Assembly (NCBI GenBank): GCA_964460165.1 | Contig: CAYWPS010000001.1 | Location: 9,384-73,383, forward strand | Origin: an uncultured Ruminococcus sp. | Lineage (GTDB): Bacteria > Bacillota > Clostridia > Oscillospirales > CAG-272 | DNA: 64,000 nt | Reading direction: 5' to 3' | Part shown: in pieces, positions 19,172-48,575 of the stretch | Layout: every line of letters starts with the position of its first letter | How positions within the stretch are numbered: the first letter of the stretch is position 1 | Program-made: the position numbers and the translations under genes | The notes under the pieces: generated by a model | Databases searched by the model: none | The model's input: only the letters and a program-made list of their open reading frames with translations | What the model was told of the DNA's origin: nothing

Positions 19172-19362
19172 TAGCGTGATACTCTTAACGGAGCATTCAC
19201 GCTAAACGATGTTTGCCCTTGCGGGCAAGTGATGTTCACTTCGTGAATGATGTTGTGCCTTCGGCACAGTGCGCAAACATCACATCACTGCGAGCATTTG
19301 CGAGCAACATCATTATGCGTAGCATAACATCACTTTTGCGTCAGCAAAAACATCACTAACAG
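19172..19362. repeat. foldback array: GTGATGTT motifs (x3-4), then AACATCAC motifs (x4), separated by short unrelated hairpins
   Basis: GATGTT at 19208, 19231 and 19249. AACATC at 19276, 19306, 19326 and 19349. Hairpins at 19172-19204, 19214-19227, 19237-19245, 19255-19267, 19314-19326 and 19334-19349. Confidence 0.6.
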
Positions 19363-29676: not shown

Positions 29677-32004
29677 ATGTATATAGGCACTATCGGAAAT
29701 AATACCCAACCGAGATTTTATCACGCAGGTACAAACGTTCCTTTCGAGCCCGAGGTGTGCGACGGTGCAGCCGTGTGGAGATGGACCGATATTTACGATT
29801 CTGCGGTAGATGTAAAATACTCCTTTAAAAAGGAGCATTACATTGGCACTGTGGATATCAAGGTAAGCGGTGCTTTGGACGTTGCTTTTTTCGTTGACGG
29901 AGTTAAGGTCGCGGTCAAGAACGCATCAGCTCCCGTTCACGTTAACCTTTACGGCAAGGAAGCGGTGATCCGATTGCGCGGTAACGTTGCCGACCTGACG
30001 TTCTCGGGTGCGGAGATATTCGGATTCTTACCGGATGATAACGAGCCGTTTATCCTGCCCGTCCCAAAGAAAATAGAATACTCGGATAAGTTAATGCCCG
30101 TAGGAAGCATCGTCGGCATCGGCACGGACGGTGAGTTTGCCGCAGAATTCTTAAAGGACAGCCTTTCCGAAAGATATGAACAGCTCCCCGACGGTGAAGG
30201 GATCAAGCTCTCCTTTGCCATCTGCAGTGAGTACGAAAGCGAGAGATACACCGTCACGGTCACGGAAAGCGGAGCCGAGGTAAAAGCAAGCACCAGACTC
30301 GCGCTTTTGTGGGGAGCGTGTCGAGTTATCGACCTCTGGTCTGACGGACACCTGCCGACAGTAAGTATAGACGATAAGCCGGATACCGAGATGCGCGGCT
30401 TCCATATGGGTCTGCCGACCGTGGAGCGAATGGAGTTTGTAAAAAGGCTCGCGCGCTACGTTCTCTTACCTCTCGGATATAACCACGTTATTATAGAATT
30501 TAACGGCGCTATGCGCTTTGACCGCCACCCCGAGATCAGTGAAAAATGGCTTGAGTCCGAGCGTCTTTACGAAGAAGGCAAGGGCGCGAGAGTAATGCAC
30601 GCGGATATCGGCGCGGAGGGTACGCTTCTCGAAAAGGCACAGGTGCGTGATCTTTTATCGGTGTTTGAGAGCTACGGCATCGAGGTCATCCCCGAGGTGC
30701 AGAGCCTCGCGCATATCGAATACATAACCAACGCATACCCCGAATTTGCTGAGCTCGGAAAATTCGCGAAGGAAGCATCCGACGGGGAGATGGCAAAGAT
30801 CAACCACACCAACATCATCGACCATTGCTATTGTCCGCACCAAGAGGGCTGCATGGATATCATCTACGATATCATTGACGAAATAGTCGAGGTCGTAAAG
30901 CCCAGGAGATACGTGCACATCGGTCACGACGAGGTATATCACATCGGTCTGTGCCCCGAGTGTAAAGCCAAGGGCGGTCCGCGTGTGTATACAGATCATG
31001 TCAAAGCTCTCCACGACTACATAGAGAAAAAGGGCCTCGGTACTATGCTTTGGTCGGATATGTTCCACACGGATATGTACTACACGGGTGAGGACTACGC
31101 ATCGGTAAAGCTCGAATTGCCGAAGGACCTCGTGCTCCTCGACTTCACGTGGTACTACCATCTTGACAAGGATATCGAGGACGACCTCCTGCCCGAGGGC
31201 TACAGGATAGTTATGGGCAATTTCTACTCCTCGCATTACCCCAGATTTAAAGAGAGGATCGCCAAAGACGGAATGATAGGCGGAGAGGTCTCCACGTGGA
31301 CGGCTGTATCCGAGGAAAAATTCGCAGAGAACGGTAAGTTCTTTGACCTGCCATACGCCGCAGAAATGCTCTGGAACGCAAGCACCTACGATGAAAGAAA
31401 CCGCGATGCTCTTTCAGCTCTTATAGGTCAGCTTGTGATCCCCGAAATGCGCGATCTTGTTCACGGACGTTACGATCTCTATCTCAAAACGGATATATAT
31501 ACCGCAGACTATGCAAGCTTCCCCGGAGACGATACACGAGTTCCCGAAGAGCTCTTGCACCTGGGACTCGTAGAGCCCAAGGGTAAAATCAAGGCGGGTA
31601 AGAGATACGACAGACTCATTTTCTCCCACGCGACTCTCAATCCCGCTCCCCGTATCTGCTGGCAGGAGCTTATTCCCGTGGGTAAATACACCGTAACATA
31701 TAAGGACGGCGAAGCAGTGGATATCCCCGTAAATTACGCAGGCGGAGTCCTTCACGTTCACTCAGGCTTCGGACTCCCGATGCCTCAGCACTACTATCGC
31801 CATCAGGGCTACGTCGGTACTTGGTTCGCCGACCCTACCTACGAGCACCGCACCGCCGAGGGTGAGCCCGTTCTCTTGCTCGGTCAGGTCTGGGATAACC
31901 CCCGCCCCGAAAAGAAAATAGCCTATATCACCTACACCCCCGACGAAAACGACTGCGCTGTTCTTGTCAGCGGCGGCGTGATGGGCATCAAGGCATCTCG
32001 ATAA
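29677..32004 (+). CDS. GH20-like glycoside hydrolase family protein (putative hexosaminidase-like)
   Basis: 775 aa. MRGFHMG and HIGHDEV resemble the GH20 R-G-x-H-x-D and H-x-G-x-D-E catalytic regions. The assignment is tentative. Confidence 0.55.
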   Translation: MYIGTIGNNTQPRFYHAGTNVPFEPEVCDGAAVWRWTDIYDSAVDVKYSFKKEHYIGTVDIKVSGALDVAFFVDGVKVAVKNASAPVHVNLYGKEAVIRLRGNVADLTFSGAEIFGFLPDDNEPFILPVPKKIEYSDKLMPVGSIVGIGTDGEFAAEFLKDSLSERYEQLPDGEGIKLSFAICSEYESERYTVTVTESGAEVKASTRLALLWGACRVIDLWSDGHLPTVSIDDKPDTEMRGFHMGLPTVERMEFVKRLARYVLLPLGYNHVIIEFNGAMRFDRHPEISEKWLESERLYEEGKGARVMHADIGAEGTLLEKAQVRDLLSVFESYGIEVIPEVQSLAHIEYITNAYPEFAELGKFAKEASDGEMAKINHTNIIDHCYCPHQEGCMDIIYDIIDEIVEVVKPRRYVHIGHDEVYHIGLCPECKAKGGPRVYTDHVKALHDYIEKKGLGTMLWSDMFHTDMYYTGEDYASVKLELPKDLVLLDFTWYYHLDKDIEDDLLPEGYRIVMGNFYSSHYPRFKERIAKDGMIGGEVSTWTAVSEEKFAENGKFFDLPYAAEMLWNASTYDERNRDALSALIGQLVIPEMRDLVHGRYDLYLKTDIYTADYASFPGDDTRVPEELLHLGLVEPKGKIKAGKRYDRLIFSHATLNPAPRICWQELIPVGKYTVTYKDGEAVDIPVNYAGGVLHVHSGFGLPMPQHYYRHQGYVGTWFADPTYEHRTAEGEPVLLLGQVWDNPRPEKKIAYITYTPDENDCAVLVSGGVMGIKASR

Positions 32005-32065
32005 ACAGGCAGCAAATAGACCTTCCAAAATCAAACAAATATTCTGATGGCATTACCATCGCGAT

Positions 32066-32103
32066 AAAAAGGCGAGGATACGCAACTTCAGCGCATCCTC
32101 GCC
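32066..32103 (-). terminator. intrinsic terminator (T-run on the minus strand)
   Basis: GGCGAGGAT (32071-32079) pairs with ATCCTCGCC (32095-32103). The A5 run at 32066-32070 gives U5 on the minus strand. Confidence 0.6.
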
Positions 32104-32111
32104 CAATTTAT

Positions 32112-32341
32112 TTATTCTTTAGCTTCTTCATTCGGAACAAACTCTAAAAGATCCTCTATCTTGCAATTAAGAACAGTGCATATCCTCGCTAAAACGTCAA
32201 TGTCCAGCCTTGCTATCCTATTATTGCAATGGTTGTTGATCTGCGAGCGTTGCATTTCCGCCATGTGACTCAGCTTATTCTTGCCGATTCCCTCTTTTTT
32301 GATTAATTCATCAAGCTTGATTATAATTTTTCCGTATTCAT
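32112..32341 (-). pseudogene. small XRE/Cro-like HTH gene without an in-frame canonical start (possible 1-nt frameshift in an A5 tract)
   Basis: A 71-codon open frame reads IIIKLDELIKKEGIGKNKLSHMAEMQRSQINNHCNN...EDLLEFVPNEEAKE. The ATG at 32341 is out of frame and stops after 6 codons. The two frames are joined by an A5 run (32327-32331). Confidence 0.5.
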
Positions 32342-32361
32342 ATCATTCAGCAAATTAAGTA

Positions 32362-32390
32362 TTGACTTTTAATTATAAACAAGTTATAGA
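32362..32390 (+). promoter_or_regulatory. candidate promoter reading into the tandem repeat
   Basis: TTGACT (32362-32367), 17 nt, TATAGA (32385-32390). The predicted start falls at about 32397, the first base of repeat unit 1. The -10 is weak. Confidence 0.35.
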
Positions 32391-32395
32391 AAAAT

Positions 32396-32634
32396 CTACC
32401 TATCGCGAGCTTGACGACAATCTGCCGAGATTGCCAAAATGTAAGTGAAAATTACACGCAGTAATTTTGATGAAGATCGGTCGAGCGGAGCCCGAAGCAA
32501 TAGCTACCTATTGCGAGCTTGGCGACAATCTGCCAAGATTGCCAAAATGTAAGTGAAAATTACACGCAGTAATTTTGATGAAGATCGGTCGAGCGGAGCC
32601 CGAAGCAATAGCTACCTATTGCGAGCTTGGCGAC
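32396..32634. repeat. 108-bp tandem repeat: two full units plus 23 bp of a third
   Basis: Unit 1 is 32396-32503 and unit 2 is 32504-32611; they differ at 3 of 108 positions. 32612-32634 is identical to the start of unit 2. All six frames contain stops. Confidence 0.9.
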
Positions 32635-32655
32635 GGTCGGCCGATATTCGCAAAA

Positions 32656-34830
32656 TTACAAGTGTAAGACTCTTTCCTGGATCTCTTGGGTACGCCCCTG
32701 ATTCCAATACTGCGTACCGATATATCCGCAGGTACGTCTTGCGACGTTCATCTTGGACTGATCGCGGTTGTGACAGTTCGGACACTCCCAAACGAGCTTA
32801 CCGTCCTCGTCGTTAGTGATATCTATCTCTCCGTCGTAGCCGCAGACCTGACAGTAGTCACTCTTGGTATTGAGCTCAGCGTACATAATATTGTCGTAGA
32901 TGAACTCCATTACGCCAAGGACGGCGTCAATATTGTTCTGCATATCGGGAACCTCTATGTAAGAGATAGCGCCGCCGGGCGAGAGCTTCTGGAACTTTGC
33001 CTCAAGGGCAAGCTTCGCAAAAGCGTCGATAGGCTCGGTAACGTGGATATGATAAGAGTTTGTGATATAGTTTCTGTCGGTAACACCCTTTACTATACCA
33101 AAGCGGTTCTGCAAGCACTTCGCAAACTTATAGGTAGTGCTCTCAAGGGGAGTTCCGTAGAGGGAGTAATCAATATTCTCGGCTGCCTTCCACTTGGCGG
33201 TGTACTCGTTAAGCTTTCTCATTATCTCAAGACCGAGCTCCTCGCCCTCACGCTCGGTGAGCTTCTTGCCGTTGAGAGCGTATACGCACTCCCAAAGACC
33301 CGCGTAGCCAAGAGAAAGAGTGGAGTATCCGCCGTGGAGATACTTGTCGATGGTCTCACCCTTCTTAAGACGGGTGAGCGCGCCGTACTGCCAAAGGATA
33401 GGAGCGGCATCGGAGAGCGTGCCGGTAAGTCTCTCGTGACGGCACTGAAGCGCTCGGTGACAAAGCTCCATTCTCTCGTCAAAGATCTGCCAGAACTTGT
33501 CCATATTCTTGCCTGCGGAGAGCGCGATATCTACAAGGTTGACGGTAACGACACCCTGATTGAATCTGCCGTAGTACTTCGGCTTGCCATCCTCGTCAAT
33601 ATAGGGAGTAAGGAAGGAACGGCAGCCCATACAGGTGTAGCAATGTCCCTCTCCGTTCTTGTCTATCTTACTCTCGAGCATTATCTTCTCGGAGATATAG
33701 TCGGGAACCATACGCTTTGCGGTACACTTTGCCGAAAGCTCGGTGAGGTAGTAGTAGGGGGAATCGGGATGAACGTTCTGCTCCTCAAGCACGTAAATAA
33801 GCTTGGGGAAAGCGGGAGTGATCCATACACCCGCCTCGTTCTTAACGCCCTGATATCTCTGAAGGAGAGTCTCCTCGATGATGAGCGCGAGGTCAGCCTT
33901 CTCCTGCTCGTTCTTCGCTTCGCCGAGGTACATAAACACGGTGATGAAGGGAGCCTGTCCGTTAGTGGTAAGGAGGGTCACGACCTGGTACTGAATACAC
34001 TGAACACCGCGGCGGATCTCCTCGCGAAGACGGGACTCGGTGATCTTTGCTATAGCGGACGCGTCGGTTACTCCGACCTCCGCGAGCTCCTTGGCGACGG
34101 TCTTGCGGATCTTCTCGCGGCTGACGTTGACGAAGGGGGCAAGGTGGGTAAGGCTTATGGACTGACCGCCGTACTGGTTGGACGCAACCTGCGCGATGAT
34201 CTGAGTAGCTATGTTACAAGCGGTGGAGAAGCTATGAGGCTTTTCTATCATAGTACCGCTGATAACGGTACCGTTCTGAAGCATGTCCTCAAGGTTTACA
34301 AGATCGCAGTTATGCATATGCTGAGCGAAATAATCTGCGTCGTGGAAGTGGATAAGCCCCTCCTCGTGCGCCTTTACGATAACCTCGGGAAGAAGGATTC
34401 TTCTGGTAATGTCCTTGGAGACCTCGCCCGCCATATAGTCACGCTGAACGCTGTTAACGGTGGGGTTCTTGTTAGCGTTCTCCTGCTTAACCTCCTCGTT
34501 GTTGCACTCGATGAGCGACATGATCTTATCGTCGGTAGTATTGGACTTACGGATAAGCTCTCTCTTGTATCTGTAAGTGATGTACGCCTTGGCAAGATCA
34601 AACGCGCCAAGCTTCATAATTTCCTTCTCTACAAGGTCCTGTATCTCCTCAACTCCCGCGGAGCGAACCATAGTAAGACAAAGTCTCTCAACCTCGAGAG
34701 CTATATTTTCAATATCCTCGGGGGATATTCTCTGTTTTTCATCAATCGCCTCATTGGCTTTAGCCACAGCGACGGATATCTTCTCTCTGTCGAAGATAAC
34801 CTCTGAGCCGTTTCTCTTAATAAGCTTCAT
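32656..34830 (-). CDS. nrdD: anaerobic ribonucleoside-triphosphate reductase
   Basis: ATP-cone N-terminus (MKLIKRNGSEVIFDREKI), C-terminal Zn site CQVCG...CPNC and glycyl-radical motif RRTCGYIG. The ATG at 34830 is preceded by GAGAAAGGAAAG. Confidence 0.95.
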   Translation of the reverse strand: MKLIKRNGSEVIFDREKISVAVAKANEAIDEKQRISPEDIENIALEVERLCLTMVRSAGVEEIQDLVEKEIMKLGAFDLAKAYITYRYKRELIRKSNTTDDKIMSLIECNNEEVKQENANKNPTVNSVQRDYMAGEVSKDITRRILLPEVIVKAHEEGLIHFHDADYFAQHMHNCDLVNLEDMLQNGTVISGTMIEKPHSFSTACNIATQIIAQVASNQYGGQSISLTHLAPFVNVSREKIRKTVAKELAEVGVTDASAIAKITESRLREEIRRGVQCIQYQVVTLLTTNGQAPFITVFMYLGEAKNEQEKADLALIIEETLLQRYQGVKNEAGVWITPAFPKLIYVLEEQNVHPDSPYYYLTELSAKCTAKRMVPDYISEKIMLESKIDKNGEGHCYTCMGCRSFLTPYIDEDGKPKYYGRFNQGVVTVNLVDIALSAGKNMDKFWQIFDERMELCHRALQCRHERLTGTLSDAAPILWQYGALTRLKKGETIDKYLHGGYSTLSLGYAGLWECVYALNGKKLTEREGEELGLEIMRKLNEYTAKWKAAENIDYSLYGTPLESTTYKFAKCLQNRFGIVKGVTDRNYITNSYHIHVTEPIDAFAKLALEAKFQKLSPGGAISYIEVPDMQNNIDAVLGVMEFIYDNIMYAELNTKSDYCQVCGYDGEIDITNDEDGKLVWECPNCHNRDQSKMNVARRTCGYIGTQYWNQGRTQEIQERVLHL

Positions 34831-34949: not shown

Positions 34950-34978
34950 ATTATACACTATATTTAGTGTTTTGTCAA
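34950..34978 (-). promoter_or_regulatory. consensus sigma-A promoter of nrdD
   Basis: On the minus strand: TTGACA (34978-34973), 17 nt, TATAAT (34955-34950). Confidence 0.7.
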
Positions 34979-35002
34979 GGGTCGAATTACTATATCTTGT
35001 GT
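34955..35002 (-). promoter_or_regulatory. two NrdR boxes
   Basis: ACACTATATTTAGTGT (34955-34970) and TTACTATATCTTGTGT (34987-35002). Their starts are 32 bp apart. Box 1 fills the promoter spacer. Confidence 0.7.
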
Positions 35003-38636: not shown

Positions 38637-38763
38637 GCTTTTCCTCTTGGATGCTTCGGCTTTTATCAAGCGGAGGAATTTTGAGATAGTTCTCGCGTTC
38701 TTCTAACAGGAGGCGTACATACGGGTACGCCGAGCTTGGCAGAAAACGGGGAAATATCCGAAA

Positions 38764-38991
38764 TTACTCAGCGAGCCAAGACTCAGCGTTCTTCTTGGAA
38801 ACTCTCGCGATCTTCTCGCTAGGATACTTCGACTCCGCACCGCCGTTGGTGTAGAGGAAGTACTTACCGTCAGCAGTAACGTAGAGAGTCTCCTCGTAGC
38901 CCGCGGGATCGCCAAAGTAACCGTTGGTTACCTTCTTAACTACGGTAGATGCAGCGGTATCGTACTCGGTTCCGCAAATGATCTTTTTCAT
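38764..38991 (-). CDS. small hypothetical protein
   Basis: 75 aa with coding-like composition. GGAAG-type RBS upstream. No family recognised. Confidence 0.5.
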   Translation of the reverse strand: MKKIICGTEYDTAASTVVKKVTNGYFGDPAGYEETLYVTADGKYFLYTNGGAESKYPSEKIARVSKKNAESWLAE

Positions 38992-48384: not shown

Positions 48385-48476
48385 AACCCGAATTTTCGCT
48401 CTAAATCCCCCTATCCCCTGCGCAAAAGAGGCTAGCTCAAGTTTTTCGAACTTGAGCTAGCCTCTTTTTGTTTGCT
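48385..48476 (+). repeat. dispersed ~90-nt element, copy 2 (C-rich tract plus 17-bp terminator hairpin); candidate sRNA 3' module
   Basis: Near-identical to 42607-42698. The stem pairs 48428-48444 with 48450-48466, followed by TTTTTGTTT. Confidence 0.85.
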
Positions 48477-48575
48477 TCGGTTCAGCGCGATGTCCTTAAC
48501 AGGTAAGTCATACTAAAGGCTAACCGTTGTTTACATTTTAGGTTATTTTGCTTGATTATTGGAAATCCGCGAGAA

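Follow-up and report, generated by a model that had tools for sequence, protein, structure and literature searches.

Organization of the nrdD 3' flank

The window, that is the whole 64,000-nucleotide stretch of DNA analysed here, comes from an uncultured Ruminococcus sp. and carries an nrdD gene that starts with ATG at 34830. The encoded NrdD is 100% identical to a database protein (P0122); the top match, P0121, is an 848-aa NrdD in which 124 aa are duplicated internally, and it has no bearing on the present case. The features of the gene and its 3' flank are as follows.

32656-34830, minus strand: nrdD, anaerobic ribonucleotide reductase gene, 724 aa (Pfam NRDD 7e-192, ATP-cone, Gly_radical)
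32656-32658, minus strand: nrdD stop codon UAA, pairing with the 3' arm of unit a1
32548-32655, minus strand: unit a1, the copy adjoining nrdD, whose first base is the base after the TAA stop
32605-32622, minus strand: apical hairpin of a1, GCAAUAG-GUAG-CUAUUGC, an inverted repeat
32440-32547, minus strand: unit a2, equal to a1 except at unit positions 6, 7, 11, 13, 17, 20 and 21
32497-32514, minus strand: apical hairpin of a2, an inverted repeat identical to that of a1
32396-32439, minus strand: unit a3, truncated within the apical hairpin, of which it keeps the first half in addition to the 5' arm
32362-32390, plus strand: vestigial promoter TTGACT-17-TATAGA of a lost AbrB/MazE-like gene
32112-32341, minus strand: XRE/Cro-type HTH pseudogene (Pfam HTH_26 1e-17)
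32070-32104, minus strand: first intrinsic terminator downstream of nrdD, a 14-bp stem then TTTTTAT (terminator scan)

Tandem Repeats Finder delimited an array at 32396-32656 with a period of 108, 2.4 copies, 93% matches and a score of 459. Its end at 32656 is the first base of the nrdD stop codon. The units 32396-32503 and 32504-32611 differ only at unit positions 9, 19 and 32, and the partial third copy is identical over its first 23 nt, then 79% similar over 53 nt, reaching 32656. An earlier note on this DNA, made from the sequence by eye, had described the 108-bp repeat with its three differing positions, a third partial copy that decays after 23 nt, three hairpins, and stops in every frame of both strands. 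The repeat finder and the unit comparison reproduced its exact coordinates, the decay corresponds to the weaker similarity just given, the three hairpins are all present as inverted repeats, and all six frames are closed. Outside the array, the 18- and 21-nt hairpin sequences are absent from the window, with a chance expectation of 0 to 0.07 matches.

When the array is divided from the nrdD side, as in the list, a1 comprises an imperfect hairpin about 86 nt long and then a spacer of 22 nt, and is homologous to the single copy found in the closest relatives (L024/L025). The differences between a1 and a2 all lie in the 5' arm, and two of them are C-to-U changes that keep the pairing as U.G. A covariance model of the unit, R1, scored 105.8 bits (E 1.7e-26) for a1 on 32559-32655 and 101.6 bits for a2 on 32451-32547. 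Unit a3 shows three differences from a2 and ends at a deletion junction, where ...GCGATAGGTAG adjoins ATTTTTCTATAAC; in the alignment of the window with L024, homology beyond a3 picks up again only at TATAACTTGTTTATAATT. The 2.4-copy state without the AbrB-like gene was seen in this window only, in a single assembly. On the minus strand each unit contains a 34-codon ORF with a TTG start. A protein-coding repeat was nevertheless rejected, since the unit lengths across the family described below (86, 87, 88, 89, 98 and 108 nt) do not vary in steps of three, and stops occur in all six frames.

The surroundings had been called AT-rich, and the GC content, 0.33-0.40 across about 32000-32400 and about 0.5 on either side, agrees with this. 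The absence of an nrdG activase from the window was likewise upheld, because no ORF of at least 120 aa contains a CxxxCxxC motif. The XRE gene, rightly described as defective, has suffered a 4-nt deletion relative to L024 (ATGAATGAATACGG to ATGAATACGG) that throws its ATG out of frame; a TGA lies just before the reading frame, which has no usable start codon. Intact XRE homologues begin MNEYGKI. The terminator scan found no terminator between nrdD and the XRE remnant; the one at 32070-32104 lies past this remnant. In relatives a terminator directly follows the element.

In these relatives a perfect promoter, TTGACA-18-TATAAT (12/12 matches), is followed by a conserved 5' UTR and a gene for an AbrB/MazE-like protein of 59-61 aa, and a bidirectional terminator lies between this gene and the element. 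By comparison, the window has lost the gene, its 5' UTR and the shared terminator. In its own promoter, the -35 hexamer is 1 nt and the -10 hexamer 2 nt short of the sequence in the relatives, and a consensus promoter scan rejects it because the final -10 base is not T. By this comparison, TTGACT-17-TATAGA is the decayed promoter of the AbrB/MazE-like gene deleted here. The promoter-like element of the earlier note thus exists at 32362-32390, but the antisense role given to it is not supported. The idea that the nrdD 3' end holds a relic of rearrangement fits the deleted gene, 5' UTR and terminator and the XRE pseudogene. Comparison of the nrdD flanks, which had been proposed for defining an insertion boundary, placed a deletion junction beside the truncated a3 and yielded no clean pair of filled and empty sites.

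A repeat family dispersed over three loci

The repeat unit is not confined to the nrdD 3' flank. A second copy lies elsewhere in the window:

38764-38991, minus strand: gene for a 75-aa protein, with its TAA stop directly before the second family member
38666-38763, minus strand: second family member, single and more degenerate (R1 60.5 bits, E 9e-14)

Three host genes have been found so far, namely nrdD, the 75-aa gene and a PFOR-like gene, two of them within the 64 kb of this genome, and the homologues at these three loci, present in several assemblies, refute uniqueness of the unit to its place. At all three loci the family copies begin 0-1 nt past a TAA stop, on the sense strand of the gene, and lie upstream of an intrinsic terminator wherever one remains. 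Such terminators 3' of the element were found in L018 and L024; at the 75-aa locus of the window a downstream terminator is seen by eye and was not flagged by the terminator scan. Within a genome, copies from different loci agree in only about 55-60% of their sequence, as judged by eye.

The 3' flanks of about 20 related nrdD loci were compared. The element is absent from L014 and L028, whose NrdD is almost identical, and reduced to a 25-nt stub in L005/6. One copy is present in L024/25 (NrdD 98% identical) and in L010/11, a single copy whose apical hairpin is damaged in L007 and L009/13, and 1.3-1.4 copies in L003/4 and L023/26/27. The close relatives thus form a series of 0, 0.3, 1 and 1.3-1.4 copies, to which the window adds 2.4. 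At the 75-aa gene, L014 has 2.3 copies and L028 has 2, and a stub is present in L003; the window's version of this locus recurs with 100% identity in the sequencing runs SRR14307639, SRR14307658 and SRR14307659. The PFOR-like gene of L018, from another metagenome, is followed by 1.9 copies of an 88-nt unit. Copy number therefore turns over quickly between strains.

The check in related genomes suggested by the earlier note thus gave homologous units in relatives, and no Rfam family. With Rfam 15, the whole window returned 0 matches at the gathering threshold, the region 31900-32900 gave two chance matches at E up to 10, both outside the repeat, and in L014, L018 and L024 no match at E up to 1 fell on the element, which bears out the earlier statement that no known RNA family is recognizable. 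No tRNA or tmRNA was found in the region, the array had no blastn match in phage and plasmid collections, and a literature search for the core sequence returned no paper. Scanning metagenomes with the conserved core gave one true match (L018) and six chance matches in high-GC coding DNA; two core patterns run against viral contigs gave nothing, or a chance match in GC-rich coding DNA (L029). The 21-nt hairpin AAAATTACACGCAGTAATTTT belongs to a part of the unit that is specific to the window, and in the genome collection it matched once by chance, at a terminator in Chryseosolibacter (L001). An R1 match at window positions 48422-48485 (E 0.19) is an ordinary terminator hairpin and not a family member, and the 91 kb around a more distant XRE homologue (L033-L039) contain no family member. 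No intrinsic terminator was called inside 32396-32655, where the hairpins are followed by CUUCGG or CACUUACA and not by a U-tract. Judged by these comparisons, the array unit is a member of a dispersed, previously undescribed repeat family in a clade of uncultured gut and rumen Clostridia.

Conserved pairing that includes the stop codon

Each unit is predicted to fold into a long imperfect hairpin that spans about 86 nt with about 29 bp. It comprises an apical 7-bp hairpin, an adjacent invariant CUUCGG and a base paired with the stop codon. In the apical hairpin all 7 pairs are kept in 12/12 family members (100% paired), and four of them show compensatory changes (CAAUAG/CUAUUG, CCGUAG/CUACGG, UCGUAG/CUACGA, GCGUAC/GUACGC). 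The apical loop is variable, being GUAG but also GUAA, GUUA, GCAU or GUAU. The outer helix joins the 5' and 3' arms by 17 pairs, about 90% paired among the 12 members, and the units end in UUUUG/CAAAA or UUUCG/CGAAA. Pairing of the stop codon can be read directly from the sequence, G-UAA-UUUUG facing CAAAA-UUA-C; in L024, UAA-A-UUUUG faces CAAAA-U-UUA, which is a compensated one-base insertion.

We quantified the pairing in two alignments. In a MAFFT alignment of 9 units, 89.7% of the cells were paired, compared with 33-42% when partners were slid, and 16 pairs had changed on both sides, compared with 4-5 in the slid controls; the observed values were reached by 0/500 shuffles. In the 12 members aligned to the model, 91.1% of the cells were paired (35-43% in slid controls), with 16 compensatory pairs (3-6 in slid controls). 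All 29 pairs of a1 are standard, although the structure was itself derived from a1. The paired fraction is inflated because the structure was first derived from one aligned sequence; the compensatory changes are unaffected. The array is thus non-coding and structured, as had been proposed, with stops in all frames and compensatory pairing among the members.

Single-sequence folding of the window gave z-scores of -5.5 for the plus strand and -3.1 for the minus strand and does not discriminate between them, a long palindrome folding equally well on both. One U.G pair is invariant in 12/12 members, and on the sense strand G.U pairs outnumber A.C pairs by 26 to 10. This strand test is significant only because of that one invariant column: without it the counts are 14 and 10, which is not significant.

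A possible cis-acting element of the nrdD mRNA

A stable hairpin begins within 15 nt of the upstream stop codon, on the sense strand, at the nrdD, 75-aa-gene and PFOR-like loci. Since the family members lie on the sense strand, 0-1 nt after UAA and before terminators, they would form part of the 3' UTR of those mRNAs. The relevant transcript would be the minus-strand nrdD mRNA, because the family is sense-oriented and lies between stop codon and terminator where the latter is kept. We think it likely that a REP/BOX-like structured repeat, locally amplified to 2.4 copies in head-to-tail order, makes up the array in the nrdD 3' UTR and acts in cis.

One copy, as in the closest relatives, has been amplified to 2.4 copies in this genome, presumably by unequal recombination or replication slippage. 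A later deletion took away what remained of the third copy together with the nrdD terminator and the AbrB/MazE-like gene, including the 5' UTR of that gene, and the same event left the crippled promoter adjoining the array. Transcripts of nrdD would now extend across the array and the XRE pseudogene as far as the terminator at 32104-32070. By analogy with the REP elements of E. coli, the element may function in cis on the nrdD transcript, where it could block 3' exonucleases or be the target of a double-stranded RNase. Its start at the stop codon could in addition make it an obstacle to terminating ribosomes, by which NrdD output would be tuned. Any such function would be dispensable, because L014 and L028, with almost identical NrdD, are without the element and L007 and L009 are without the apical hairpin.

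A bolder version of this proposal, which we regard as distinctly unlikely, is that of a new class of cis-acting 3'-UTR RNA with UAA in the basal helix. A terminating ribosome would have to open the UAA-containing hairpin, so that termination would be coupled to mRNA fate through a block to exonucleases, cleavage by RNase III, or the stalling and rescue of ribosomes. CUUCGG and the U.G pair would form a protein-binding site, and copy number would be a fast-evolving dial on oxygen-sensitive anaerobic enzymes (NrdD, PFOR).

Alternative explanations

The units might instead be non-autonomous mobile (MITE-like) or selfish or neutral palindromes without an RNA-level function, which we hold to be rather unlikely. 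The hairpin would then be kept for a transposase or the replication machinery, or by self-correction of the palindrome, and the placement after stop codons would be merely where insertions are tolerated. Indeed, the family is scattered over unrelated genes, near-identical strains differ in its presence or absence, and internal deletions are seen in some copies. As a whole, the unit amounts to a single long terminal inverted repeat, the 17-pair outer helix supplying the terminal repeats of a MITE, both strands fold, and the wobble bias is weak without one column. The window and L024 can moreover be read as TA/ATTTTG...CAAAAT/TA, i.e. with a TA target duplication. However, TA at both ends is found in the window and L024/L023 and is missing in L003, L010 and L018. 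No clean filled/empty pair with a target duplication was found, the empty sites of L014 and L028 being strongly diverged. The limited likeness between loci, about 55-60%, gives no sign of recent transposition, and no transposase gene adjoins any copy. Growth by head-to-tail arrays also argues against mobility, as does the position of every first copy, 0-1 nt after a stop and in sense, which random TA insertions in AT-rich spacers would not produce.

The earlier note had considered a plus-strand RNA started from TTGACT-17-TATAGA, in which the repeats would regulate the nrdD 3' end in antisense or be processed into repeat RNAs. A -35/-10 pair with 17-nt spacing does lie directly upstream of its unit 1, and the plus strand folds strongly (z -5.5). 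The relatives' perfect promoter nevertheless serves an AbrB-like protein gene that a bidirectional terminator parts from the element, and in the window the promoter has lost bases in both hexamers, with a final -10 base other than T. The other loci have no promoter facing the array, and at 3/3 loci the units are sense to the upstream gene, which makes this reading very unlikely. The related comparison with antitoxin RNAs encoded by repeats, as at a type III toxin-antitoxin-like locus, draws on tandem structured repeats downstream of a promoter-like element. It fails because no toxin gene follows the array: neither strand has a ToxN/AbiQ-like or other toxin ORF there, the array running into antisense nrdD (plus) or the XRE pseudogene (minus). 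With units of 86-108 nt, and with terminators and unrelated genes but no toxin partner at the other family loci, its probability is practically negligible. A recent private duplication of unique intergenic DNA, or an assembly artefact, is suggested by the 2.4-copy array minus the AbrB-like gene being found in this window only; it is made extremely unlikely by the homologues of the unit that many independent assemblies contain at three loci, several of them in tandem. The three copies also differ at defined positions, which a collapsed or expanded repeat assembly would not yield.

Implications and comparison with known repeat systems

With the covariance model, a new repeat family becomes available for the annotation of Clostridia genomes from rumen and gut, and spurious short ORFs in such arrays are accounted for; the nrdD 3' flank is a rearrangement hot spot in the clade. 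The 0 to 2.4 copies behind almost identical nrdD genes are a natural series on 3'-UTR structure, mRNA stability and protein yield. If the family is merely selfish or neutral DNA, it is an ordinary case of a bacterial interspersed palindromic repeat.

Integron attC sites were rejected as a match. Their core sites, R''/R' RYYYAAC ... GTTRRRY, stand at the ends of an imperfect palindrome after a cassette ORF; here the ends are TTTTG...CAAAA and the upstream genes are core genes (nrdD, PFOR-like), not cassettes. ToxI-type repeats are also tandem, structured and non-coding, with units of about 36 nt upstream of a toxN-family endoribonuclease gene, whereas no family locus has a toxin gene. The BOX elements of Streptococcus pneumoniae are built of boxA, boxB (repeated) and boxC modules. 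Like the present family, they are intergenic repeats of a Firmicute that fold stably, are transcribed with their neighbours and contain a tandem module of variable number; compared by description only, boxB alone is repeated in BOX and the whole unit here. To our knowledge, no fixed relation of BOX to stop codons has been described.

The Correia repeat enclosed elements of Neisseria and the ERIC/IRU (RU-1) elements of enterobacteria are long imperfect palindromes, and Correia hairpins are RNase III substrates that alter the expression of adjacent genes (PMC2649163, PMC2759123). They are about 100-150 nt long, are transcribed into hairpins, and share with our family an intergenic and dispersed distribution and strain-variable presence. 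Their terminal inverted repeats and TA target duplications are well defined and their orientation is not fixed, whereas the few known copies of our family are uniformly oriented, form tandem arrays and carry TA at both ends in only some cases.

The closest likeness in position is to the REP/BIME elements of E. coli, which are dispersed extragenic imperfect palindromes, mostly at gene 3' ends and often in copy-variable clusters. REPs are 20-40 nt long, GC-rich, present in hundreds of copies mostly as inverted pairs, and linked to RAYT transposases; REP/BIME palindromes carry a conserved GTAG or CGTC tag at one end (PMC3733652). The family described here has no sequence similarity to REPs and is not of this class: its head-to-tail units of 86-108 nt, with a hairpin of about 86 nt and 29 pairs, are not short GC-rich palindromes, and they end in UUUUG/CAAAA or UUUCG/CGAAA, GUAG occurring only as a variable apical loop. 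REPs are co-transcribed with the upstream gene and stabilize its mRNA, and those at most 15 nt from the stop codon make ribosomes stall, with less translation as the result (Liang, Rudd and Deutscher 2015, summarized in PMC12306157); an nrdAB transcript is among the stop-codon-proximal cases (PMC12306157). If our family acts on RNA, it would be a Firmicute counterpart of these stop-codon-proximal REPs, whose hairpins are far shorter and do not take in the stop codon as the one described here does.

Tandem array at the 3' end of nrdD

At 32396-32656, Tandem Repeats Finder returned an array of 2.4 copies with a period of 108 (93% matches, score 459); no other tandem repeat of the 64-kb window comes near it in strength. 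The only other one scoring at least 60 is a 23-nt repeat at 19306-19357 (2.4 copies, 84% matches, AACATCACTTATGCGTCAGCAAA). As the earlier note had described, the two 108-nt units at 32396-32503 and 32504-32611 differ at three unit positions (9, 19 and 32), all three hairpins claimed in the repeat are found in the sequence, and stops interrupt six of six frames. A partial third copy, identical over its initial 23 nt and diverged in the remainder, reaches 32655, the base adjoining the nrdD stop codon. The AT-richness reported for the surroundings corresponds to a GC content of 0.33-0.40 over 32000-32400 vs ~0.5 in the flanks, and the absence of nrdG from the window agrees with our search, which found no radical-SAM CxxxCxxC ORF of at least 120 aa. 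Between nrdD and what is left of the XRE gene, the window retains no terminator. The features concerned are:

32104-32070, minus: first minus-strand terminator downstream of nrdD
32112-32341, minus: HTH_26/XRE reading frame without a start codon
32440-32547, sense orientation (nrdD strand): unit a2
32548-32655, sense orientation (nrdD strand): unit a1
32656-34830, minus: nrdD
38666-38763: single degenerate family copy after the 75-aa gene
38764-38991, minus: 75-aa gene, the same gene as in locus L014

Upstream of nrdD (34955-35002, minus strand), two NrdR-box-like 16-mers, ACACAAGATATAGTAA at 35002-34987 and ACACTAAATATAGTGT at 34970-34955, have a centre-to-centre distance of 32 bp, the latter lying within the spacer of a TTGACA-17-TATAAT promoter. 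This pairing matches the usual NrdR operator layout.

A conserved hairpin that includes the stop codon

The unit folds into one long imperfect hairpin of ~86 nt. Its outer helix pairs 5' UUUUG... with 3' ...CAAAA, one U.G pair in its middle helix (AGCUC/GGGCU) is invariant across all 12 members, and its 7-bp apical hairpin is followed by a nearly invariant CUUCGG. The apical hairpin is unbroken in all 12 members and has four different stems (CAAUAG/CUAUUG, CCGUAG/CUACGG, UCGUAG/CUACGA and GCGUAC/GUACGC), two of which are found in adjacent copies of one array.

Pairing in the 9-unit MAFFT alignment and in the 12 model-aligned members. The outer helix was derived from one aligned sequence and the second alignment was fitted to the covariance model, so that the paired fraction is flattered; the compensatory changes are not.
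Standard-paired cells: 89.7% (MAFFT); 91.1% (model-aligned)
Standard-paired cells, 3' partners slid by 1-3 columns: 33-42%; 35-43%
Pairs altered on both sides: 16/29; 16
Pairs altered on both sides, slid control: 4-5; 3-6

None of 500 shuffles of the MAFFT alignment reached the observed values, and the same held for the model-aligned set except for further pair types (25/500). The stop codon lies in the base of the helix, in the window as G-UAA-UUUUG paired with CAAAA-UUA-C. In L024, the 3' arm has gained a U opposite an additional A just past the stop, and reading of the sequences indicates that most of the remaining first copies pair at least the AA of UAA with UU.

Loss of a neighbouring gene and its terminator

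The window was compared with ~20 related loci, taken from metagenomes of rumen and gut and from a single NCBI assembly; the way to them was through proteins homologous to NrdD and to the XRE protein. The usual order at most of them is EamA transporter, nrdD, AbrB/MazE-like gene and XRE gene, the AbrB/MazE-like gene (59-61 aa) being convergent with nrdD and divergent from the XRE gene; the AbrB-like/XRE pair is missing at a few (L023, L026, L027 and L028). A bidirectional terminator (GGTCGAAGG...CCTTCGACC) separates nrdD from the AbrB-like gene, and the nearly invariant AbrB-like/XRE intergenic region carries the promoter of the AbrB-like gene, a perfect TTGACA-18-TATAAT.

Pairwise alignment with L024, the closest such relative (NrdD 98% identical), revealed continuous homology from nrdD across the first repeat copy. 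Beyond it, 1.4 more units in the window stand in place of the L024 terminator, AbrB-like gene and 5' UTR of that gene, and homology restarts at TATAACTTGTTTATAATTAAAA. The window genome has thus lost the neighbouring gene together with the terminator. Relative to L024, one base is missing in the -35 (TTGACA to TTGACT), two in the -10 (TATAAT to TATAGA) and four at the XRE start (ATGAATGAATACGG to ATGAATACGG), the last causing a frameshift; the XRE gene of the window is a pseudogene. The TTGACT-17-TATAGA element that the earlier note had proposed as an antisense promoter is present at 32362-32390, but promoter decay and gene loss identify it as the decayed promoter of the deleted AbrB-like gene.

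The XRE gene (window 32112-32341, minus) normally pairs with the AbrB-like gene, as at L003:5797-6327 and L024:4815-5345; the ~100 bp between the two are rich in inverted repeats, and the genes flanking the pair vary among strains. In a more distant organism (L033:9636-10231), the XRE homologue is paired with a divergent 78-aa gene without Pfam match, and a gene for a PemK-like toxin and three for serine recombinases are close by. Because of this conserved spacer, the shifting neighbours and the distant context, the pair has the look of a regulatory module belonging to an integrated element. In L007, the pair is followed by a protein of 444 aa bearing RNase III and dsRBD domains.

Copy number and origin of the array

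In relatives the homologous element begins 0-1 nt past the nrdD stop, on the nrdD strand, and its amount varies.

Copies of the element at nrdD in the related loci and the window.
L014, L028: 0
L005/L006: 25-nt stub
L024/25, L010/11: 1
L007, L009/13: 1, apical hairpin damaged
L003/4, L023/26/27: 1.3-1.4
Window: 2.4

L014 has the same GH20-XRE-nrdD synteny as the window. The nrdD 3' flank of L007 (4600-4790) holds, with its damaged copy, ~190 nt of additional DNA containing several more hairpins, which include a perfect terminator (GGGCTGAAAATCACTTGATTTTCAGCCC). At L002:100-215 (nrdD 3' flank, nrdD sense strand) the family element is absent; four GTGAAAT units directly follow the stop, each succeeded by a short GC-rich hairpin whose stem differs every time (e.g. 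TTGCC-TTCG-GGCAA). The position is occupied here by a structured array of a second type, unrelated to the family. Locus L022 (2004-4550, protein P0121) encodes an 848-aa NrdD with an internal 124-residue tandem duplication (NGQAPFIT...YVDENGQ twice); this is either genuine, as an in-frame duplication within the catalytic barrel, or an artefact of assembly.

Within the window, a1 and a2 show seven differences, all in unit positions 6-21, and are identical over the other 87 nt; two of the seven are C-to-U changes that retain pairing as U.G. In its 5' arm, a1 is similar to the one copy that L024 has; the 5' arms of a2 and of a3, the copy farthest from nrdD, resemble the L003 type. A simple recent duplication accounts for this pattern less well than unequal recombination among variant copies or partial homogenisation does. 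The deletion that took the AbrB-like gene cut the last window copy within the loop of the apical hairpin, and the terminal copies of the L014 and L023 arrays likewise stop at or near this hairpin.

A dispersed family

Scanning metagenome contigs for the conserved core revealed 1.9 tandem copies of an 88-nt unit directly after the stop of a PFOR-like gene in L018, on the sense strand of that gene and with a strong terminator downstream. L014 carries a 2.3-copy array 3' of the stop codon of the 75-aa gene; at this gene's locus L028 has two copies and L003 a stub. The 75-aa protein has no Pfam family on record and is conserved beside the EamA/nrdD region in several relatives, with 0.5 to 2.3 family copies 3' of its gene. 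Three Logan runs (SRR14307639, SRR14307658 and SRR14307659) contain its locus at 100% identity, so the window strain occurs in those samples.

A covariance model built from nine units found three members in the window, the two full nrdD units (105.8 and 101.6 bits) and the 75-aa-gene copy (60.5 bits), and recovered all copies of the relatives; applied to 91 kb from an organism farther removed, it found none. A weak match at 48422-48485 (plus strand, E 0.19) was rejected as a member: its perfect 22-bp hairpin (AAAAGAGGCTAGCTCAAGTT...AACTTGAGCTAGCCTCTTTTT) has A and T runs at its sides, which makes it a bidirectional terminator. Searches of Rfam and of phage and plasmid collections gave no match to the element, nor was it found in the searchable literature.

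Strand and alternative explanations

Fold energies cannot decide the strand, since both fold well (z of -3.1 for minus and -5.5 for plus). On the gene-sense strand G.U pairs outnumber A.C mismatches 26 to 10 (p ~0.01), or 14 to 10 without the single invariant U.G column, a weak argument for the sense strand. Position is a stronger one: at three of three loci the first copy lies on the sense strand of the upstream gene and adjoins that gene's stop codon, and loci that keep the terminator have the array upstream of it. This arrangement would make the element part of the nrdD mRNA 3' UTR. Among the loci examined, the only promoter facing the array is the vestigial one of the window, and a plus-strand antisense RNA is contradicted by the origin of that promoter as a relic of the deleted gene. 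A type III antitoxin array is also contradicted, as is a private duplication, since homologous units occur in relatives and at three loci. From the earlier note, the structured non-coding repeat and the rearrangement relic at the locus hold, while strand, promoter and uniqueness of the unit had to be given up.

The main rival to a 3' UTR element takes the units for palindromic DNA that is MITE-like or neutral. They are indeed dispensable, and TA|ATTTTG...CAAAAT|TA can be read in two lineages; however, their orientation and distance to stop codons are fixed, arrays grow head-to-tail, and copies at separate loci of one genome are little alike. The comparisons establish a dispersed family with a conserved hairpin, a stop-codon-abutting position and fast copy-number change.

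Comparison with known repeats

The element may act in cis on the nrdD transcript. Its ~29-bp hairpin is a plausible candidate RNase III substrate; Correia elements have been described as RNase III substrates (PMC2649163). The nearest functional precedent is the E. coli REP. REPs shield upstream mRNA against 3' exonucleases. Those within 15 nt of the stop stall terminating ribosomes and reduce translation (Liang, Rudd and Deutscher 2015, as summarised in PMC12306157). The feature is a new family among the interspersed structured repeats of bacteria, a kind already known, and is unusual in having the stop codon built into the hairpin and whole units in tandem arrays.
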